A program made the position numbers and the translations under genes. From positions 96,001-160,000 of the IMG/VR virus record IMGVR_UViG_3300047200_000500: a stretch of DNA of 64,000 nt. One strand, 5' to 3'. Under the pieces are notes generated by a model, which worked only from the letters and a program-made list of their open reading frames with translations, did no database searches and was not told where the DNA came from. Source of the DNA: a virus. This document shows, piece by piece, positions 1,182-27,900 of this stretch (position 1 is its first letter; each line of letters starts with the position of its first letter).

Positions 1182-1892
1182 ATGGACCTCTCCAAAATCG
1201 AAGCAATCCTCAAAAAGATGAACATCTCTGAGGAAGCTATCAAGGAATTCACTACCACTGTTAGTGAGCATTTTGTTTCTAAGGAAAAGGCGCTCAAAGA
1301 AGAGTTTACCCAACGTTTAAATAAAGCTAAACAAGTGTGTGTTGAAGAAGTTGAAGCACACAAATCAAACCTTTCTCGTGGTGTCCAGCGCTTCTTAGAA
1401 GCTAAGGTCACTACAATCGAAAAAGCTGCTTCCAAAAAGCATGCTATTGAGGAGTCTGAAGCTACCACCAAACTCAAGCATCTCAAAGCATTGCTTGAGG
1501 GAATAAATGTGGATAGCGCTCAAACCAATCAGGCTCTCCAGGCTGTCAAGGAAGAGAAGGCTGCTGTTGAGAAACAGCTTGTTGAATCTCGCGAAGCACT
1601 GCAACGCGAGAAGGCTAAGGCCGGTAAGCTCTCGGAAATAGCTGAAAAGTCCATGGCACGGCAGAAGGACCTTGAAGGTAAGCTGCAGTTAGTGGAAAAG
1701 AAGCTGGAAGAGAGTAAGGTTGCTCCAGTCCAGGAGAAGACCTTGGCAGAAGAGAAGCAATCTGCGGCTAAGCCTCAGACGACAGTAGTGGCGGAGAGTA
1801 CCAAGCAGAATGCTGCTAAGCCTACCGCTAAGCCTGCTCAGAACGAGCCATCGAATGAAATCGATGACATCGCCCAGTCCCTGGAATCCTGA
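1182..1892 (+). CDS. prohead core/scaffolding protein (T4 gp22-like)
   Basis: Glu/Lys/Ala coiled coil directly upstream of the capsid gene; SD AAGGA; GC-rich codon use. Confidence 0.75.
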   Translation: MDLSKIEAILKKMNISEEAIKEFTTTVSEHFVSKEKALKEEFTQRLNKAKQVCVEEVEAHKSNLSRGVQRFLEAKVTTIEKAASKKHAIEESEATTKLKHLKALLEGINVDSAQTNQALQAVKEEKAAVEKQLVESREALQREKAKAGKLSEIAEKSMARQKDLEGKLQLVEKKLEESKVAPVQEKTLAEEKQSAAKPQTTVVAESTKQNAAKPTAKPAQNEPSNEIDDIAQSLES

Positions 1893-1927
1893 ACCCTCTA
1901 TCAACCCTCCCACCAACGGAGATCCAA

Positions 1928-2839
1928 GTGAACAAGCGTCAAGAAGTCCTCTTAACTGAGGCTAAGAAGAACGAACAGGTCCACAAGTGGGCCAAAGTTC
2001 TCAACAAAATGCCCGAAGTCAAGTCCCGCAGCAAAATGGGACTCATGGCTTCGATCATGGAAAACCAGTACAACCACATGAAGGGCGGCGGCGGAAGCCG
2101 TATCCTTTTTGAGGATGCTACCACCACCAACAACATCGCGGACTTCACCCGCTTTGCCCTCCCCCTCCTGCGCAAGAGCTACCCCAAGCTCATCGCTGAC
2201 GGCCTCGTGGGCGTGCAGCCCATGTCGCAGCCCGCTTCGCTGATCTTCTACGTCCGCTATCGGTATGGCATCAGCAAGGGCCAGACTGTTGCTGGTACGC
2301 AGATCATGCGTCAGAACACCTCGCAGGCTTACGCTCGTCAGAATGGCTGGGCGCTTGATCCTTACTACAGCTCGCAGACTGTTAAGGACGAGAACCTCAC
2401 CATCGCTGGTGGCGTGATCAGCGGTCAACTGGCCCAGAAGCCTGTTCTGGCTGGTACCGTGGTGGTCAACGTCTACGCAGCTGACACCAACTCGTGCGAC
2501 ACCCCCACCCCGCTGCTCCAGGTTAGCTTCGACAGCAAGGGCGCACCCGACAACGTTCTTATTGGCAACGTGACTGGTCTGACGATCGACACCTCGACAA
2601 GTGGTGCTACGTCCTTCAACCACAACACTGGCACTGTGAACATCACCGTTTCAAGCGGTACGTTCCCAGTTGGTGCCTTTGCGACTGTCGATTACGAGTT
2701 CGACCTTGAGAACAACCCCTTCCAGCCGGAAGTGACTCTCTCGATCGACAGCGACTCGGTTTCGGCCATCACCCGCAAGCTGAAGACCTCGTGGAGCCTT
2801 GAGGCTGCTCAGGATCTCCGTGCACAACATGGACGCTGA
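1928..2839 (+). CDS. gp23: major capsid protein, N-terminal part (frameshifted)
   Basis: MENQ, LVGVQPMSQPASLIFYVRYRY and VSAITRKLKTSWSLEAAQDLR are T4 gp23 family motifs; homology switches frame at about 2816-2823. Confidence 0.92.
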   Translation: MNKRQEVLLTEAKKNEQVHKWAKVLNKMPEVKSRSKMGLMASIMENQYNHMKGGGGSRILFEDATTTNNIADFTRFALPLLRKSYPKLIADGLVGVQPMSQPASLIFYVRYRYGISKGQTVAGTQIMRQNTSQAYARQNGWALDPYYSSQTVKDENLTIAGGVISGQLAQKPVLAGTVVVNVYAADTNSCDTPTPLLQVSFDSKGAPDNVLIGNVTGLTIDTSTSGATSFNHNTGTVNITVSSGTFPVGAFATVDYEFDLENNPFQPEVTLSIDSDSVSAITRKLKTSWSLEAAQDLRAQHGR

Positions 2840-3422
2840 GGCCACCCTGACCGACCTGATGGGTGATGAGATCGTCGCTGAGATTGATCGTGAGATCATC
2901 AACGACCTGATCATCGCTTCCAGCATCCGCGCCACCCACAACTTTGCCACCGCAGCCGGTGCTTCGGTCAACTTCATTGACCGTAACATCGCCCTGTTGT
3001 ACAAGACCCTGGAAGTGGCGAACGTCATCCATCGTACCACACTCCGTGGTCCGGCCAACTGGATGGTGACTTCGGCTGATATCTCAAGCAAGTTTGAGCA
3101 GCTGAACGACTTCCGTGGTAGCGACGTGCTGGCCACCGATGGAATCGACATTGGCATCACCAATGCTGGAACCATTCAGGGCAAGCTGAAGCTCTACAAG
3201 GATCCTCTCTTCCCCAACTGCAAGATCCTGATGGGCTTCAAGGGTAACAGCGCACTGGATGCGGGTTACTTCTACGCCCCCTATATCCCGCTGCTCAGCA
3301 CCCCGACTGTGCTTGATCCAAACAGCTATACCCCTAGTAAAGGCGTGATGACCAGATACGGGAAAAAGCTGATAGAAGATGGTGGGTTGTTCTATGGAAC
3401 TATTAACGTCAGCAACCTGTAA
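2817..3422 (+). CDS. gp23: major capsid protein, C-terminal part (continuation in the +1 frame)
   Basis: VHNMDAEATLTDLMGDEIVAEIDREII, RGPANW, GFKG..LDAGYFYAPYIPL, P.KGVMTRYG are gp23 C-terminal motifs. Confidence 0.92.
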   Translation, partial: SVHNMDAEATLTDLMGDEIVAEIDREIINDLIIASSIRATHNFATAAGASVNFIDRNIALLYKTLEVANVIHRTTLRGPANWMVTSADISSKFEQLNDFRGSDVLATDGIDIGITNAGTIQGKLKLYKDPLFPNCKILMGFKGNSALDAGYFYAPYIPLLSTPTVLDPNSYTPSKGVMTRYGKKLIEDGGLFYGTINVSNL

Positions 3423-3448
3423 TTCGGATCAGAAGTAGTCGAAAGACG

Positions 3449-3487
3449 CATCGAACCCCAGGTGAAAGCCTGGGGTTCGATGTTTTT
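3449..3487 (+). terminator. rho-independent terminator after the capsid gene
   Basis: 14-bp perfect stem CATCGAACCCCAGG/CCTGGGGTTCGATG, loop TGAAAG, followed by TTTTT. Confidence 0.9.
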
Positions 3488-3596
3488 GTACATAGAAATG
3501 CCCATAAGAAGCCTGTAAAAATAATATGATGTAAACAGTAAATAATTGTGTTAAATTGCAAAATATATAAAATAAGAGCACTTCTATGGAGAACAC

Positions 3597-5321
3597 ATGA
3601 AGTATTTTTTTGAAGAAGTATCCAAATTGTATGAGCAAGGAAAATCGCAAAAACAGATATCTGATGAATTAGGTTGTGGTCTTAATACTGTTCGTAGAAG
3701 AATGAAAGAATTAAAATTGGGTGGTAAATCAAAAGGGATAAGAAATTATCAGATTAATGAATCTGTTTTTGATAATATTAATACAGAAGAAAAAGCTTAT
3801 TGGCTTGGATTTTTATTGGCTGATGGTTGTATTGCCAAGTCTGCAAAAACAAGAAGAGCAATAAAAGTATCAATACAAATAAGAGATAAAGAACATTTAC
3901 TAAGATTAGCTAAATTTTTTAATTTTAATGGTAAGTATATTTTCGATAAGAGAAATAATCATGAAAGAATTGGATTTGTTTTTAATTCTGTTAGGTTATG
4001 CAATAAATTAATAGAATATGGATGGCTTGAGTTCAAAGAAAATGGCGATACTAAAATATTAAATATTAACGAAAATTTATTTAGTCATTTGTTCCGTGGA
4101 TATTTTGATGGTGATGGATGTATTTCAAATTGGATTAATAAAAAGAAAACATGGTATATCCATATAGTATCAAATAATCGTAAGCCACTTGAATATTTTA
4201 ATTCAAAAGTTCCAGTAAGTTCAGTAGTTAAAGATAGGATTAATAAAAAATCTGGCAATAAAACATATACGATAAAATGGAGTGGGCTAAACAATGTTAG
4301 ATCAATGATTGGTTATATTTATGATAATAGTAATATTTATTTAAAGAGAAAATTTATAAGATGTTCCAATATTGATAATGATTTATTTGTGTTTAGATCA
4401 ATTCATTCGTTTAGTTTTAATGGAATTAAAAGAACCAATGATATAGATAAAATAGTTTGTGAAAGATTAATAGAATCATTTTCTAATATTTTAATTGATT
4501 ATGGTTGGTCGAATCCACAATTTGATTATGAATATGATATCAATGAATTAAAAAAATTTGATATTAATAAATGTATATGTGAAAATTCATTAATAACTGT
4601 TAATGGTAAAACTCCTGGAAATGATACAATTTTACATTTCCAATCTGATATTTGGAAAATAAGTCAAAATTCAAAACCATCAATATATGAATTGTCAAAT
4701 CATAAAAATATTGTAATTAAGGCTATTAATCAATTTTTTAAACAAGACAATAGTTCCTTATCATCAACTAGACTTATTAGAGAATTACAATTTGCTGGAT
4801 TTACAAAAGCGTCAATCTTGTCTGTTCCAGTAATCATGGCAGCAATTAAAAAATTCAATTTGTCTGGTAGTTGGTTTGATCCGTGTGCTGGATGGGGAAA
4901 TAGATTATTAGCTGCTCATATTCTGAAGATTGATTACAATTGTACTGATCCAGGAATTTGTTATGAAGGATTAAAAGAATTATCTTCTAATATAAAATCA
5001 ACTGCAACTGTTCAAAACAAAAAATGGCAAGATGCTGAATGGATTAATTGTGGATTTGTATTAACATCACCTCCTTTTTGGAATAAAGAAAATTATTTAG
5101 ATAATGTTGATTACGGAACATATGATAAATGGTGTGGTGAATTTTTATTTCCATTAATAGAGAAATCTAAACAATATTCACAAAATATTGTTTTTCATGT
5201 TGATAAAAGAATGATTAGCAGTATATCTGAAAAGTATAATACTGAGATTGTTCCACTGACTTCCTCAAATAGACATAAAATGCCAACTGAATATTTTATA
5301 AAAATTAATGAATGTATTTAA
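3597..5321 (+). CDS. HTH + LAGLIDADG endonuclease fused to an amino (N4-C/N6-A) DNA methyltransferase domain
   Basis: N-terminal HTH (SQKQISDELGCGLNTVRRRM); YWLGFLLADGCI and FRGYFDGDGCI; C-terminal FDPCAGWGNR (motif I) and LTSPPFW (motif IV). Confidence 0.8.
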   Translation: MKYFFEEVSKLYEQGKSQKQISDELGCGLNTVRRRMKELKLGGKSKGIRNYQINESVFDNINTEEKAYWLGFLLADGCIAKSAKTRRAIKVSIQIRDKEHLLRLAKFFNFNGKYIFDKRNNHERIGFVFNSVRLCNKLIEYGWLEFKENGDTKILNINENLFSHLFRGYFDGDGCISNWINKKKTWYIHIVSNNRKPLEYFNSKVPVSSVVKDRINKKSGNKTYTIKWSGLNNVRSMIGYIYDNSNIYLKRKFIRCSNIDNDLFVFRSIHSFSFNGIKRTNDIDKIVCERLIESFSNILIDYGWSNPQFDYEYDINELKKFDINKCICENSLITVNGKTPGNDTILHFQSDIWKISQNSKPSIYELSNHKNIVIKAINQFFKQDNSSLSSTRLIRELQFAGFTKASILSVPVIMAAIKKFNLSGSWFDPCAGWGNRLLAAHILKIDYNCTDPGICYEGLKELSSNIKSTATVQNKKWQDAEWINCGFVLTSPPFWNKENYLDNVDYGTYDKWCGEFLFPLIEKSKQYSQNIVFHVDKRMISSISEKYNTEIVPLTSSNRHKMPTEYFIKINECI

Positions 5322-5424: not shown

Positions 5425-6657
5425 ATGCCAGCTTCAACAAGTACAAATGATAAACGGTCTAATTTTAATAGACCATCAGAAGGACCAATCATTGTTGATA
5501 ATGATGATATAATTATCAAACCTCTCACGCCTGGACGGCGAACTGTTATAATTTCTAAAGATGGAACTTGTGACATAGTTTCAGATCCAACCATCAAAGA
5601 ATTAACTGAAACTATAAAATTATTGGCATCAAAATTTAGTGATTTATATAAGAAAGATCTTAATGGAAGAATGGATGAATCAGCCATAGCGGCGTCTGAA
5701 GCATTTCAAAAGCAAATTAATGATTGGGAAATTGTTAAAAAAGAACTTAATGTGAATGATAAACAGAAAAAATTTCCACTTTCTAATGCTTATGCAAAAG
5801 AGATGATATGGCATCAAACCAATGGTTTTAATAGGAATATTAGAGTTTTTTCTTTAAAATATCGTCCAAATGGTGACATCATTAAAGATGACATTATTAA
5901 AGATGGCTACATGATATTAACACCATTTACATATAAAAAGAATAATACTAAAAAATTTTTATTTAAAAAAGTTGATGGAGAATGGAAAATGGATATCAAT
6001 AAAAAATTGCAAGTTCTTTGGTATAAAAATGAACTTATAGCAATAATTTCTCAAGAAACAATCGTTACCAGTGGTGGGGCTATTTGGAATTCTAAATATG
6101 ATAGCATTTTTGATCTATCATTTTATAAGGCTAATTTTATTAAATTTCAAGATGGATCAATGAAGGAAAATGGCGTTAATGGTATTACTAATGAAGTATT
6201 ATTATCCATATTAATAAATCGGTTTGATGATATGGATCGCGATGACGATAAAAAAATCTTAGAATTATTACAAAGTGCTAGGTTGTGGATGTATAAGCGT
6301 ATTTTGGATAAACACATTAGCGAATACAATTCAGATAACACTACAAATTTTGAACCAATAAGGCAAGGTTGCCCATGTAAAACTATACCAGAATATGAAG
6401 AATATGAGAAAAAACATGGCGAATGTCCGTGTAAATATGTCAGGAAATTAAGTGTTGGTAGTAAATTTAAAAAAGATGATGAAAAGTGTATATGGGAAAT
6501 TGTTGATTATGGTATTGCATATGATGGGTACACACCAACATATAAAGTAATTAACGAACATGGAATTAGTGGTGAAGAATATGCCAAAATTGTTGATGAC
6601 GTGATGCTCGGTAAATTTAATAGTGATAAAATATACAGGAGGTTAAGGTTGATATGA
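5425..6657 (+). CDS. multidomain protein with a Tad1-like (anti-Thoeris/CBASS sponge) domain
   Basis: SGGA...IKFQDGSMKENGVNGITNEVLLSILINRF...LQSARLWMYKRILD resembles the Tad1 pattern IxFQxGPxKExGVNG..NEDL...RL...LEEAL.W..KR; start moved to 5425 because of the SD GAGGA. Confidence 0.6.
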   Translation: MPASTSTNDKRSNFNRPSEGPIIVDNDDIIIKPLTPGRRTVIISKDGTCDIVSDPTIKELTETIKLLASKFSDLYKKDLNGRMDESAIAASEAFQKQINDWEIVKKELNVNDKQKKFPLSNAYAKEMIWHQTNGFNRNIRVFSLKYRPNGDIIKDDIIKDGYMILTPFTYKKNNTKKFLFKKVDGEWKMDINKKLQVLWYKNELIAIISQETIVTSGGAIWNSKYDSIFDLSFYKANFIKFQDGSMKENGVNGITNEVLLSILINRFDDMDRDDDKKILELLQSARLWMYKRILDKHISEYNSDNTTNFEPIRQGCPCKTIPEYEEYEKKHGECPCKYVRKLSVGSKFKKDDEKCIWEIVDYGIAYDGYTPTYKVINEHGISGEEYAKIVDDVMLGKFNSDKIYRRLRLI

Positions 6658-6974
6658 TTTTCTTCATTGATTTTGATGGTACTGTCTGCCCAGATGGTGA
6701 TCCGCAGCCAGAATGCCGCGAGGTATTAAAAAAGTTAAAAGAAGATAATCATACCATAGTAATGTATTCGTGTAGGTCTAATCCTAGTTGTGTTTTTGAC
6801 CATGAACAAGCCACTAAAGAGATGATTGAATATTTGAAGAAACATGATATCCCGTTTGATGGAATAGAACCTAACAAGCCATTTTTCAATTTTATTATAG
6901 ATGATCGGGCATTAGGCATACCATTAACCAAGGCTGGGGATGTAGATTGGGCGAAGATTAAAACATTAATTTAA
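6654..6974 (+). CDS. small HAD-superfamily phosphatase
   Basis: IDFDGT motif I, YSCR motif II, KP...IIDDRA motifs III/IV. Confidence 0.85.
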   Translation: MIFFIDFDGTVCPDGDPQPECREVLKKLKEDNHTIVMYSCRSNPSCVFDHEQATKEMIEYLKKHDIPFDGIEPNKPFFNFIIDDRALGIPLTKAGDVDWAKIKTLI

Positions 6975-26279: not shown

Positions 26280-26473
26280 CTTCTGGTGATTTTTTAACAG
26301 AGATGGCCGAAGAACCAGAAATTAATAAAGCTGGATTAGATCCAGGTTTTGTAGCAATGTTGCAGCGTATGCACGAATATTCTCCAAAAGTACATGAGAT
26401 GGTTAGGAAATTAAGGCGTGAAATTTATGTTTCTATAATGCAAGATAAAATTAATGGTAAAATATATATTTAA
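26276..26473 (+). CDS. hypothetical protein
   Basis: Coupled overlaps on both sides. Confidence 0.5.
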   Translation: MTSGDFLTEMAEEPEINKAGLDPGFVAMLQRMHEYSPKVHEMVRKLRREIYVSIMQDKINGKIYI

Positions 26474-27900
26474 TGACAATTCATTATACAACAGAAGAGT
26501 TTATACAAAAAGCCCAAAAAATCCATGGTGATAAATATAATTATTCGTTGGTTGATTATAAAAAATACAATATCAAGATAAAAATAATTTGTCAAATTCA
26601 TGGAGTGTTTGAACAAAATCCAGCTTGTCATATTCAAGGTCAAGGATGTCCGATTTGTCATGGATGTAAAAAAAGTAATAATGAACAATTTATACAAAAA
26701 GCAAATAAAGTTCATAATAATAGGTATGATTATTCAAAAGTTAATTATGTAAGATCTAACTATAAAATTAAAATCATTTGTCCTGTTCATGGTGAATTTG
26801 AACAAATTGCTGCAAATCATTTACGTTATGGATGTCATTTGTGTTATAAATCATATAATTCTAATATAAAGGAATTTATTGATAAAATAGAAAAAATTCA
26901 CGGTGATAAATATGATTATTCAAAAGCTGATTATAAAAATTCATTTACTAAAATTAAAATTATTTGTCCTGTTCATGGTGAATTTGAACAAACACCAAAC
27001 AGACATCTATCTGGTCAGTGTGGTTGTCCTAAATGTCCGTCAGTGATTTCTTATGCCCAACAAGAACTTATTGATTTTATAAAGGAAGACAAGACTATAA
27101 ATGATCGTGAAGTTATTAAACCAAATGAATTAGATATTTTTATTCCAAGTAAAAATATTGCTATTGAATATCATGGTATTTATTGGCATAGTTATAATAA
27201 GTTGGAGTCTAATATAGAAAAATATAAACACCACAACAAAGCATCAATTTGTTTTGATAAAGGTATTCAATTAATACAAATTTTTGAAAATGAATGGCTA
27301 AATAAGAAAAACATTGTAAAGTCTATCATTAATGCTAAATTAGGAATTAATAATAAAATATTTGCGCGTAAATGTGAGATTAAAGAATTATCATCCAAGG
27401 AATTTAATGAATTTTGTAATAAAAGCCATATTCAAGGAAAATTAAATTCAGTTATAAAGTTAGGATTGATACATTATGATAGATTAGTTTGTGTCATTGG
27501 TTTTAATAGGCATTCGAGGTATGATTATGAATGTACTAGATTTTGTAATGAATTAAACGTTAATGTTGTTGGTGGCGCATCAAAGTTATTTAAATATTTT
27601 TTAAATAAATGGAAACCTAATTCTATTTTATCGTTTGCTGATAGACGATATAGTAATGGTAGATTATATAAAACATTAGGATTTGAATTAATTGGGGTTA
27701 CTGATCCAGGGTATTTTTATTTTAAAAATGGTGGTGATATGATATTGTACTCTCGTCAACAGTTTCAGAAACATAAACTTAAAAATAAATTAGATAATTT
27801 TAATTCTGATTTATCAGAGGCTCAAAATATGTTTAATAATAAATATAGAAGACTATGGGACGCAGGGCATTGGAAATTTGTATGGTCAAATATTAAATAG
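26473..27900 (+). CDS. Hef-like homing endonuclease with three DUF723-type Zn repeats
   Basis: 3x (HGDKYDYS..Y......KIICPVHGEFEQ....H..G.GCP.C); ELDIFIPSKNIAIEYHGIYWHS; GGASKLFKYF...SFADRRYSNG...WDAG. Confidence 0.8.
   Translation: MTIHYTTEEFIQKAQKIHGDKYNYSLVDYKKYNIKIKIICQIHGVFEQNPACHIQGQGCPICHGCKKSNNEQFIQKANKVHNNRYDYSKVNYVRSNYKIKIICPVHGEFEQIAANHLRYGCHLCYKSYNSNIKEFIDKIEKIHGDKYDYSKADYKNSFTKIKIICPVHGEFEQTPNRHLSGQCGCPKCPSVISYAQQELIDFIKEDKTINDREVIKPNELDIFIPSKNIAIEYHGIYWHSYNKLESNIEKYKHHNKASICFDKGIQLIQIFENEWLNKKNIVKSIINAKLGINNKIFARKCEIKELSSKEFNEFCNKSHIQGKLNSVIKLGLIHYDRLVCVIGFNRHSRYDYECTRFCNELNVNVVGGASKLFKYFLNKWKPNSILSFADRRYSNGRLYKTLGFELIGVTDPGYFYFKNGGDMILYSRQQFQKHKLKNKLDNFNSDLSEAQNMFNNKYRRLWDAGHWKFVWSNIK

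Follow-up and report, generated by a model that had tools for sequence, protein, structure and literature searches.

Homing endonucleases are thought to escape cleavage of their own DNA through insertion or sequence drift that destroys their target, and restriction enzymes escape it by methylation. The free-standing homing endonucleases of T4-like phages, Seg of the GIY-YIG type and Mob of the HNH type, are encoded in intergenic cassettes with their own expression signals beside a conserved essential neighbour, are present in some and absent from other close relatives, are flanked by recombination tracts and combine a separate DNA-binding module with the nuclease; in T4 itself, the slot after the major capsid gene gp23, between genes 23 and 24, holds one of them, the GIY-YIG homing endonuclease gene segD. 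The subject of this study is a gene that shares all of these traits and sits in the same slot after gp23, on a stretch of 64,000 nt from a T4-like phage (positions 96,001 to 160,000 of IMG/VR virus record IMGVR_UViG_3300047200_000500; hereafter the window). It differs from Seg and Mob in that its nuclease belongs to the LAGLIDADG family, not to GIY-YIG or HNH, in that its homing is only predicted, and in that the same polypeptide continues into a putative DNA-modification unit of about 310 aa found in no Seg or Mob protein. Its features, in window positions, are:

3588-3591, + strand: ribosome-binding site GGAG, 5 nt ahead of the ATG, read directly from the sequence
3597-5321, + strand: fused open reading frame (ORF) P0001, 574 aa, with helix-turn-helix (HTH), LAGLIDADG nuclease and amino-methyltransferase, starting with ATG at 3597 and open throughout
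3609-3710, + strand: HTH of three helices, residues 5-38
3774-4376, + strand: single-chain LAGLIDADG domain, residues about 60-260
3798-3833, + strand: LAGLIDADG motif 1, residues 68-79, with predicted catalytic D76
4089-4124, + strand: LAGLIDADG motif 2, residues 165-176, with predicted catalytic D173
4380-4856, + strand: N-terminal subdomain of the methyltransferase unit, residues 262-420, mostly helical and conserved
4857-5318, + strand: Rossmann-fold core of an S-adenosylmethionine-dependent amino-methyltransferase, residues 421-574
4878-4898, + strand: methyltransferase motif I, DPCAGWG, residues 428-434
4944-4952, + strand: acidic TDP after strand 2 of the methyltransferase core
5064-5078, + strand: motif IV, TSPPF, after strand 4, residues 490-494

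Several other described systems resemble this gene in part. Its N-terminal 260 residues are homologous to the phage HTH-LAGLIDADG endonucleases of PHROG 4645 (29-37% identity by tblastn), annotated examples of which occur, free-standing or intron-encoded, in Bacillus phage 0305phi8-36, in Staphylococcus Twort-like phages and in crAss-like phages; these proteins have the same two-motif single chain and stop after the LAGLIDADG domain, at about 250-320 aa, whereas the fused protein runs on into the methyltransferase. With the type IIG/IIC restriction-modification enzymes (MmeI, Eco57I and the BcgI type) it shares a nuclease and an amino-methyltransferase in a single chain, motif I preceding motif IV, and possibly the cut-and-protect logic. 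It is nevertheless not assigned to that class, for its nuclease is LAGLIDADG and not PD-(D/E)xK, it has no C-terminal target recognition domain of the short-site kind, and it is phage-borne and site-specifically inserted; LAGLIDADG enzymes read sites of 14-40 bp, compared with 4-7 bp for type IIG/IIC. The Mom family (PF25680), represented by Mom of phage Mu, enters the comparison because in sister cassettes a Mom domain replaces the methyltransferase, either on a LAGLIDADG nuclease (locus L045) or on PD-(D/E)xK-like ones; Mom itself has an unrelated fold (GCN5-related N-acetyltransferase) and another chemistry, and the window gene has no Mom domain. A homing nuclease physically tied to a phage DNA methylase ORF is known from the ShiLan element, in which an out-of-frame HNH homing endonuclease gene is inserted in, and interrupts, an actinophage DNA methylase (Arsenault et al. 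2025, PMC11855218); in the window, by contrast, the nuclease forms the N-terminal domain, in frame with a methyltransferase unit that is complete. Barth et al. 2023 (PMC10448857) report, moreover, that homing endonuclease genes cluster close to essential genes and at the boundaries of recombination. A full-text literature search returned no description of natural LAGLIDADG-methyltransferase or nuclease-Mom fusions. The parts are of known kinds, and it is their combination, fixed position and nuclease-by-modifier modularity that were not found in that search, while automatic cluster names in the ESM Atlas show that such fusions are already present in databases.

The fusion is a real and conserved single-polypeptide protein, and the conservation of its motifs goes far beyond chance. 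When longer proteins of JGI, ENA, Logan and NCBI assemblies were searched with the C-terminal part, 30 clusters of fused homologues were recovered, 563-629 aa long and 38-50% identical in the C-domain, nearly all of which carry PF14528, and the fused frame is present at every locus examined. Architecture and motifs are retained in more than 30 homologues that have diverged to 35-50% identity. The AlphaFold2 model of the whole protein reaches a predicted local distance difference test (pLDDT) value of 89.9 and a predicted template modelling score (pTM) of 0.80. Pairwise identities of the N-domain and of the C-domain co-vary (r = 0.75), and the pattern of conservation indicates that both halves are under purifying selection as a single protein. 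Separate translation of the methyltransferase was considered and rejected: no ATG lies at the domain boundary, the sole in-frame GTG (4392) has no ribosome-binding site, and no Met is conserved there in the family. The initial annotation, made from the letters alone, had described one ORF with an HTH, two LAGLIDADG motifs and a methyltransferase retaining DPCAGWG and TSPPF, next to the capsid gene and with no intein splice motifs. The motif positions listed above bear out this architecture, matches to phrog_138 directly upstream bear out the adjacency, and the absence of intein features also stands, the ORF having its own terminator, ribosome-binding site and ATG setting with no splicing context around it. 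Nor did any Rfam family match anywhere in the window, and an origin of the fused ORF as an intein or in a group I intron is therefore rejected on the basis of this null result and of its own ATG and ribosome-binding site after a terminator.

The nuclease half begins with the HTH (helices at residues 5-13, 18-25 and 29-38 in the model), which is matched by HTH_23 (E 1.7e-4) and related Pfam HTH families, all of them below threshold (residues 5-38), and which is followed by a flexible linker (residues about 41-50, pLDDT 64). The LAGLIDADG family model PF14528 is reached with 36 bits against a cut-off of 22.5, and phrog_4645 ('endonuclease') covers residues 6-259 with E 6.7e-49. In Foldseek searches the N-domain is best matched by I-AniI (E 1.7e-8; template modelling score by target 0.54-0.57), and further matches include I-SmaMI, I-OnuI, I-LtrI and intein endonucleases, with the bI3 maturase among them. 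The model's secondary structure and these matches agree on the duplicated alpha-beta-beta-alpha-beta-beta-alpha fold, and each of the two motif helices ends in the catalytic acidic residue, as expected of a single-chain LAGLIDADG enzyme. In the family alignment of 31 sequences, D76 is invariant and D173 is kept in 30, the exception being P0028 with Asn, and K147, D97 and R251/K252 are likewise invariant. Judged by these conserved residues, the LAGLIDADG nuclease is predicted to be catalytically intact.

For the second half, the assignment as a methyltransferase rests on fold, motifs and transitive homology. Modelled alone, the C-domain (pLDDT 93.5, pTM 0.91) is a class-I Rossmann methyltransferase with core strands at 426-428, 447-450, 471-473 and 487-490, DPCAGWG following strand 1, TDP following strand 2 and SPPF following strand 4; it thus has the glycine loop, acidic residue and (D/N/S)PP(Y/F) tetrapeptide of class-I amino-methyltransferases. 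Invariant across the 31 sequences are D428-P-C-A-G-W-G, Y447, D451-P, T490-S-x-P-F, H534 and D536 in the core, and R392, R395, E396 and G401 in the helical subdomain (residues 262-420), which possibly serves in target recognition; the model shows about 80 residues past motif IV and no C-terminal target recognition domain. The closest solved structures are TrmN (Z 15.6, root mean square deviation 2.4 A over 160 residues) and Trm11 (Z 15.6), followed by Trm14, METTL5, RsmC, PrmC/HemK, METTL16 and the TaqI-like lmo1582, all amino-methyltransferases that use a (D/N)PP(F/Y) catalytic loop. At the level of sequence, the NCBIfam scan of P0001 gave nothing significant, and the same was true of sequence searches of solved structures with P0001 and with the C-domain profile, where the best match was a DNA N4-cytosine methyltransferase (E 0.12). 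A profile search with the C-domain against 1.84 billion representatives recovered 4149 proteins at E <= 1e-3 and 1192 at E <= 1e-10, and within this superfamily PF01555 (DNA N6/N4 methylase) matches 45 of the 88 scanned representatives at E <= 1e-3, three individually checked ones exceeding its cut-off, with the Eco57I methylase model matching six of the 88. One free-standing homologue, P0002 (310 aa), begins exactly at the domain boundary, aligning from residue about 262 and including the accessory subdomain, from which it follows that the methyltransferase unit, its accessory subdomain of roughly 160 aa included, is autonomous. Relatives that stand alone occur widely in viruses, and the ESM Atlas automatically names them N4-cytosine DNA methyltransferases, which we take as a lead only. 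As motif IV, Ser-Pro-Pro-Phe/Tyr typifies the N4-cytosine DNA methyltransferases; the predicted product is accordingly probably N4-methylcytosine and possibly N6-methyladenine (m6A). That DNA is the substrate is suggested by this form of motif IV, by the DNA binders and nucleases with which the domain is partnered and by its interchange with Mom.

The gene upstream of the fused ORF and the signal between them are:

1928-2839 and 2799-3422, + strand: homologue of gp23, the major capsid gene, split in two frames that match positions 2-218 and 215-405 of the phrog_138 profile
3448-3483, + strand: intrinsic terminator of gp23, with a 16-bp stem and a T-run

The ATG of the fused ORF lies 114 nt past this terminator, at which a high-GC block stops and the AT-rich cassette starts. 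The distance from gp23 to the fused gene is 115-270 bp in 14 contexts out of 15 independent ones; the two genes stand in this way, on the same strand, in the window, L002, L003, L004, L015, L021, L037, L060, L090, L092, L093 and the more distant L097 (L002 being the same contig as L080 and L004 the same sequence as L008), whereas L091 has one 246-aa gene in between. Since the downstream genes vary among these contexts, the association is with gp23 itself. The final 60 aa of gp23 are near-invariant across 83 loci and are therefore the kind of constrained sequence that homing endonucleases exploit; a comparison of the gp23 3' end with the presence of the fused gene revealed no diagnostic site, the end of the protein being near-invariant in both groups.

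In a set of 80 gp23-related viral contigs, the slot behind the capsid gene proved hypervariable, and the fused gene has been exchanged between near-identical phages along with a recombination tract at its flank. In L060 the slot is filled by the fused gene, in L063-65 by a 227-aa ORF; as far as the gp23 stop codon these loci are 96-97.6% identical, over more than 5 kb, and past it they are unrelated. Between L060 and L063 most of this stretch shows 0-5 mismatches per 100 nt, with a steep rise at the end of gp23, where the last 183 nt hold 23 changes, all of them synonymous. The terminal tract of about 150 nt of gp23 in L060 is 98.7% identical to another lineage, L055/56, and the remainder of the gene is 99-100% like L063; this switch marks a recombination breakpoint inside gp23, some 155 nt from its 3' end. 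In a second pair, L003 and L019/20 (88-90% identical), a 1.9-kb segment with the fused gene is swapped for 0.7 kb, homology continuing through the gp23 terminator and then breaking, so that the junctions fall right after the terminator and right after the stop codon of the fused gene. Intergenic, beside a conserved gene and sporadic among close relatives, the gene is a free-standing cassette. On a longer time scale, the tree of gp23 and that of the fusion protein have a single supported split, common to both, and the window is nearest to L093 in both (78% amino-acid identity for gp23, 50% for the fusion protein); the agreement of the trees implies that the element has long travelled with gp23, by vertical descent or co-conversion, and has been exchanged locally.

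The gp23 gene of the window has peculiarities of its own. Compared with all intact relatives it has a 5-nt deletion near 2818-2822 (relatives read ...AAG GCT GTT CAC AAC..., the window reads ...CGT G CAC AAC... at the break), which is either an assembly or sequencing error or a defective population variant; the 169.6-kb record has no other copy of gp23, beside which the frameshifted gene could be a relic. Positions 1250-3480, comprising a scaffold-like gene, gp23 and the terminator, have 51-58% GC in a genome of about 30% GC, the rise being gradual on the leftward side and abrupt at the terminator, and GC at third codon positions is 0.72 in gp23 and 0.14 in the adjacent fused gene; in relatives gp23 has 51-54% GC compared with 42-44% across the 17.7-kb loci. 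An rRNA or other RNA gene as the cause of the block was rejected (no Rfam or tRNA match; the block consists of the scaffold-like gene and gp23), and so was the idea that gp23 had recently come from a GC-rich relative, since all relatives sampled are only 67-75% identical at the nucleotide level. Megablast found no close relatives of the window phage among GenBank phages.

The window gene is one of several architectures found in the slot after gp23:

HTH-LAGLIDADG-methyltransferase: the window gene's family
HTH-LAGLIDADG-Mom: L045, nuclease domain matching the profile of the window family with E 1.7e-77
HTH with PD-(D/E)xK-like region and Mom: L016, L027, L035/L052 and L048, with weak MTES_1575 and RE_endonuc matches
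HTH-NUMOD3-TnsA-like nuclease with a methyltransferase domain of the window type: L017, probably also L036 and L040
Multi-HTH with methyltransferase-like domain: L009, L043 and L073
XamI-like restriction endonuclease: L013:7546-8322 (PF09572, E 1.5e-28)

In all large multi-domain ORFs of the slot that could be assigned, a DNA base modifier is joined to a nuclease or DNA-binding module; other types of cargo were not seen among them. Beyond the slot, matches among the 88 superfamily representatives include LAGLIDADG_3 (14), LAGLIDADG_2 (7; the two may overlap), EndoVII, HNH, HNH_5 and TnsA-like nucleases (2 each) and, also in two representatives, NUMOD1, a DNA-binding module typical of homing endonucleases; the superfamily is fused to non-nuclease DNA binders as well (ROS/MucR and plain HTHs). 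The Atlas contains all-viral clusters of 57 and 255 members with LAGLIDADG_2 and N6_N4_Mtase. A nuclease and a base modifier in one chain is thus a recurrent arrangement, with unrelated folds on both sides.

Related genes were also seen elsewhere in these genomes. The genome of the window phage encodes, outside the window (G000:C1:58564-60057; L095:556-2049), a 497-aa fusion of a Vsr/MTES_1575-like (PD-(D/E)xK) region with a Mom-family domain (PF25680, E 1e-28), directly upstream of a gp5-like baseplate hub gene, and, likewise outside the window (G000:C1:8571-9512; L007:1303-2244), a free-standing 313-aa HTH-LAGLIDADG gene, 26% identical to the N-domain, that adjoins an adenylosuccinate-synthetase-like gene (PF00709, E 5e-15). 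L060 (2476-4783) differs from L063, in phages otherwise 96-97.6% identical, by a second insertion of 2.4 kb between the prohead protease and scaffold genes, which encodes a 519-aa protein with zinc ribbon, PD-(D/E)xK-like region and Mom, and a 247-aa FkbM-type methyltransferase. A SAM lyase gene (PF23780) immediately follows the fused gene in L003 (9787-10488). Tandem cassettes occur in L021 (9381-11588), where a 735-aa HTH protein weakly matching the methyltransferase domain comes after the fused gene, and in L084 (7632-9449 and 10243-11120), where a second LAGLIDADG gene of the window family, inside which the contig ends, comes after a 605-aa HTH/methyltransferase-like gene.

Why should a homing-type nuclease be joined to a base modifier? 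The reading that we tentatively favour, with slightly less than even confidence, is that the fused gene is a free-standing, homing-type mobile cassette in which nuclease and modifier are functionally coupled, one cutting and the other protecting. In a mixed infection, the nuclease would cut a long site in or beside the near-invariant gp23 3' end of relatives that lack the cassette; repair from the carrier genome would then copy the cassette along with a short flanking tract, and the fused modification domain would mark the DNA of the carrier and thereby spare it. Nuclease and modifier would together act as a single-chain cut-and-protect unit, with a logic like that of restriction-modification. 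That the substrate is DNA, that the target lies at this site and that the activities are coupled is presumed here, and several observations pull the other way. The methyltransferase unit also exists alone, as the 310-aa P0002 with its own accessory subdomain, and need not share the target of the nuclease. Classical homing endonucleases escape self-cleavage without modification, and a protective domain is therefore not required. The C-domain of P0001 misses the cut-offs of curated DNA methyltransferase models (16.2 bits for PF01555 against 26.7), and its top structural matches are RNA N2-methylguanine (m2G) and m6A methyltransferases. The split shared by the two trees fits long co-inheritance or co-transfer and by itself is no proof of horizontal spread, and the superfamily census, having been seeded from the methyltransferase, is biased toward methyltransferases.

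A more specific version of coupling, that this is a 'homing restriction-modification' unit and the first LAGLIDADG-based cut-and-protect system, its methyltransferase methylating a base inside the long gp23 target of the nuclease, is conceivable yet somewhat doubtful. Were it true, the immunity of the carrier would be epigenetic and not sequence-based, and the element could attack a site that is unable to diverge, the end of the capsid protein being near-invariant; the Mom-bearing and PD-(D/E)xK-bearing sister cassettes would then be convergent versions, used in competition of phage against phage.

The main rival to coupling, possible if somewhat unlikely, is that the protein is an ordinary homing endonuclease with unlinked cargo. 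The methyltransferase (or Mom) would then be an independent short-motif anti-restriction enzyme directed against host restriction, and the fusion would confer only co-mobility and co-expression and give the phage a reason to retain a selfish gene. The free-standing 310-aa homologues with the same accessory subdomain, the wide occurrence in viruses of stand-alone relatives named as N4-cytosine enzymes, and the exchange of the modifier for Mom in L045, with the LAGLIDADG scaffold and the site unchanged, all accord with such a role, as do the fusions of the superfamily to non-nuclease DNA binders; the Mom of phage Mu is a broad anti-restriction modification, which counts on the same side. Indeed, the free-standing homologues and the Mom swap fit unlinked cargo and coupling equally well. 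What tells against mere cargo is that the assignable large ORFs of the slot contain nothing but pairs of a DNA-binding or nuclease module with a base modifier, that the fusion has been retained with no separate start across deep divergence, and that the pairing recurs with at least five nuclease folds, beyond what co-mobility alone predicts.

Another explanation, one that we consider improbable, is that of a site-targeted methyltransferase in which the HTH and LAGLIDADG parts serve only as a long-site DNA reader, with no cleavage or with nicking only, for example in regulation near late genes. WhiA and maturases are cases in which a LAGLIDADG scaffold has come to bind DNA or RNA without cutting it, and the bI3 maturase is among the structural matches here; P0028 has replaced the second catalytic Asp by Asn, and the pTM of the whole protein suggests a fixed arrangement of domains. 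Such a reader would, however, hardly call for the invariance of D76, of K147, D97 and R251/K252, and the near-invariance of D173, nor for a pattern of presence, absence and recombination typical of active homing genes, and the free-standing methyltransferase homologues do without it. These comparisons also sort the three options left by the initial annotation: the self-protecting selfish element and the restriction-like weapon gain from a mobile cassette in a homing-endonuclease slot, from conserved catalytic residues and from recurring fusions, whereas the methyltransferase with LAGLIDADG as its reader is weakened by the conserved catalytic Asp and by the 310-aa methyltransferases that have no LAGLIDADG.

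Still less probable is a C-domain that does not act on DNA at all, being instead an RNA (m2G or m6A) or protein-glutamine methyltransferase fused by happenstance. TrmN, Trm11, Trm14, METTL5, RsmC, PrmC and METTL16 are indeed its best structural matches, and P0001 reaches no curated DNA methyltransferase model, but about half of the superfamily representatives match PF01555 and a few the Eco57I restriction-modification methylase, the partners are always DNA-binding or DNA-cutting modules, the partner with which it is interchangeable, Mom, is a DNA modifier, and SPPF is the motif IV expected of an N4-cytosine DNA methyltransferase. An artefact joining two genes in frame, through the mis-assembly that the initial annotation had named as fatal to its reading or through a sequencing error, could be suspected in a metagenome contig whose neighbouring gp23 has a frameshifting deletion, but it has a negligible chance of being correct and mis-assembly is rejected, because the same fused frame recurs in more than 30 diverged proteins from independent assemblies (JGI, ENA, Logan and NCBI) and at all loci examined.

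A homing-type nuclease joined to a DNA modifier would bridge the target-loss and methylation strategies of avoiding self-cleavage. Coupled activities would mean that a selfish element is able to aim at a site that does not vary, would suggest a way for phages to compete with relatives in the same cell, and would provide natural meganuclease-methyltransferase scaffolds with long-site specificity; uncoupled ones would still mean that modifiers directed against restriction are spread by hitchhiking with homing nucleases. In both cases, the slot after the capsid gene is a hotspot of nuclease-modifier cassettes in environmental T4-like phages. The family itself has been kept across deep divergence at a fixed place next to a phage gene that is among the most conserved, and Mom-bearing and PD-(D/E)xK-bearing versions mirror it.

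Two further genes of the window deserve mention. A 475-aa ORF at 26473-27900 (+ strand), which matches PHROG 559 ('HNH endonuclease') with E 2.9e-132 and also PHROG 3339 ('homing endonuclease'), is probably another mobile nuclease gene. Two genes downstream of the fusion, at 6654-6974 (+ strand), lies an auxiliary metabolic gene, a 106-aa ORF matched by PHROG 1238 ('phosphoheptose isomerase', E 3e-23).

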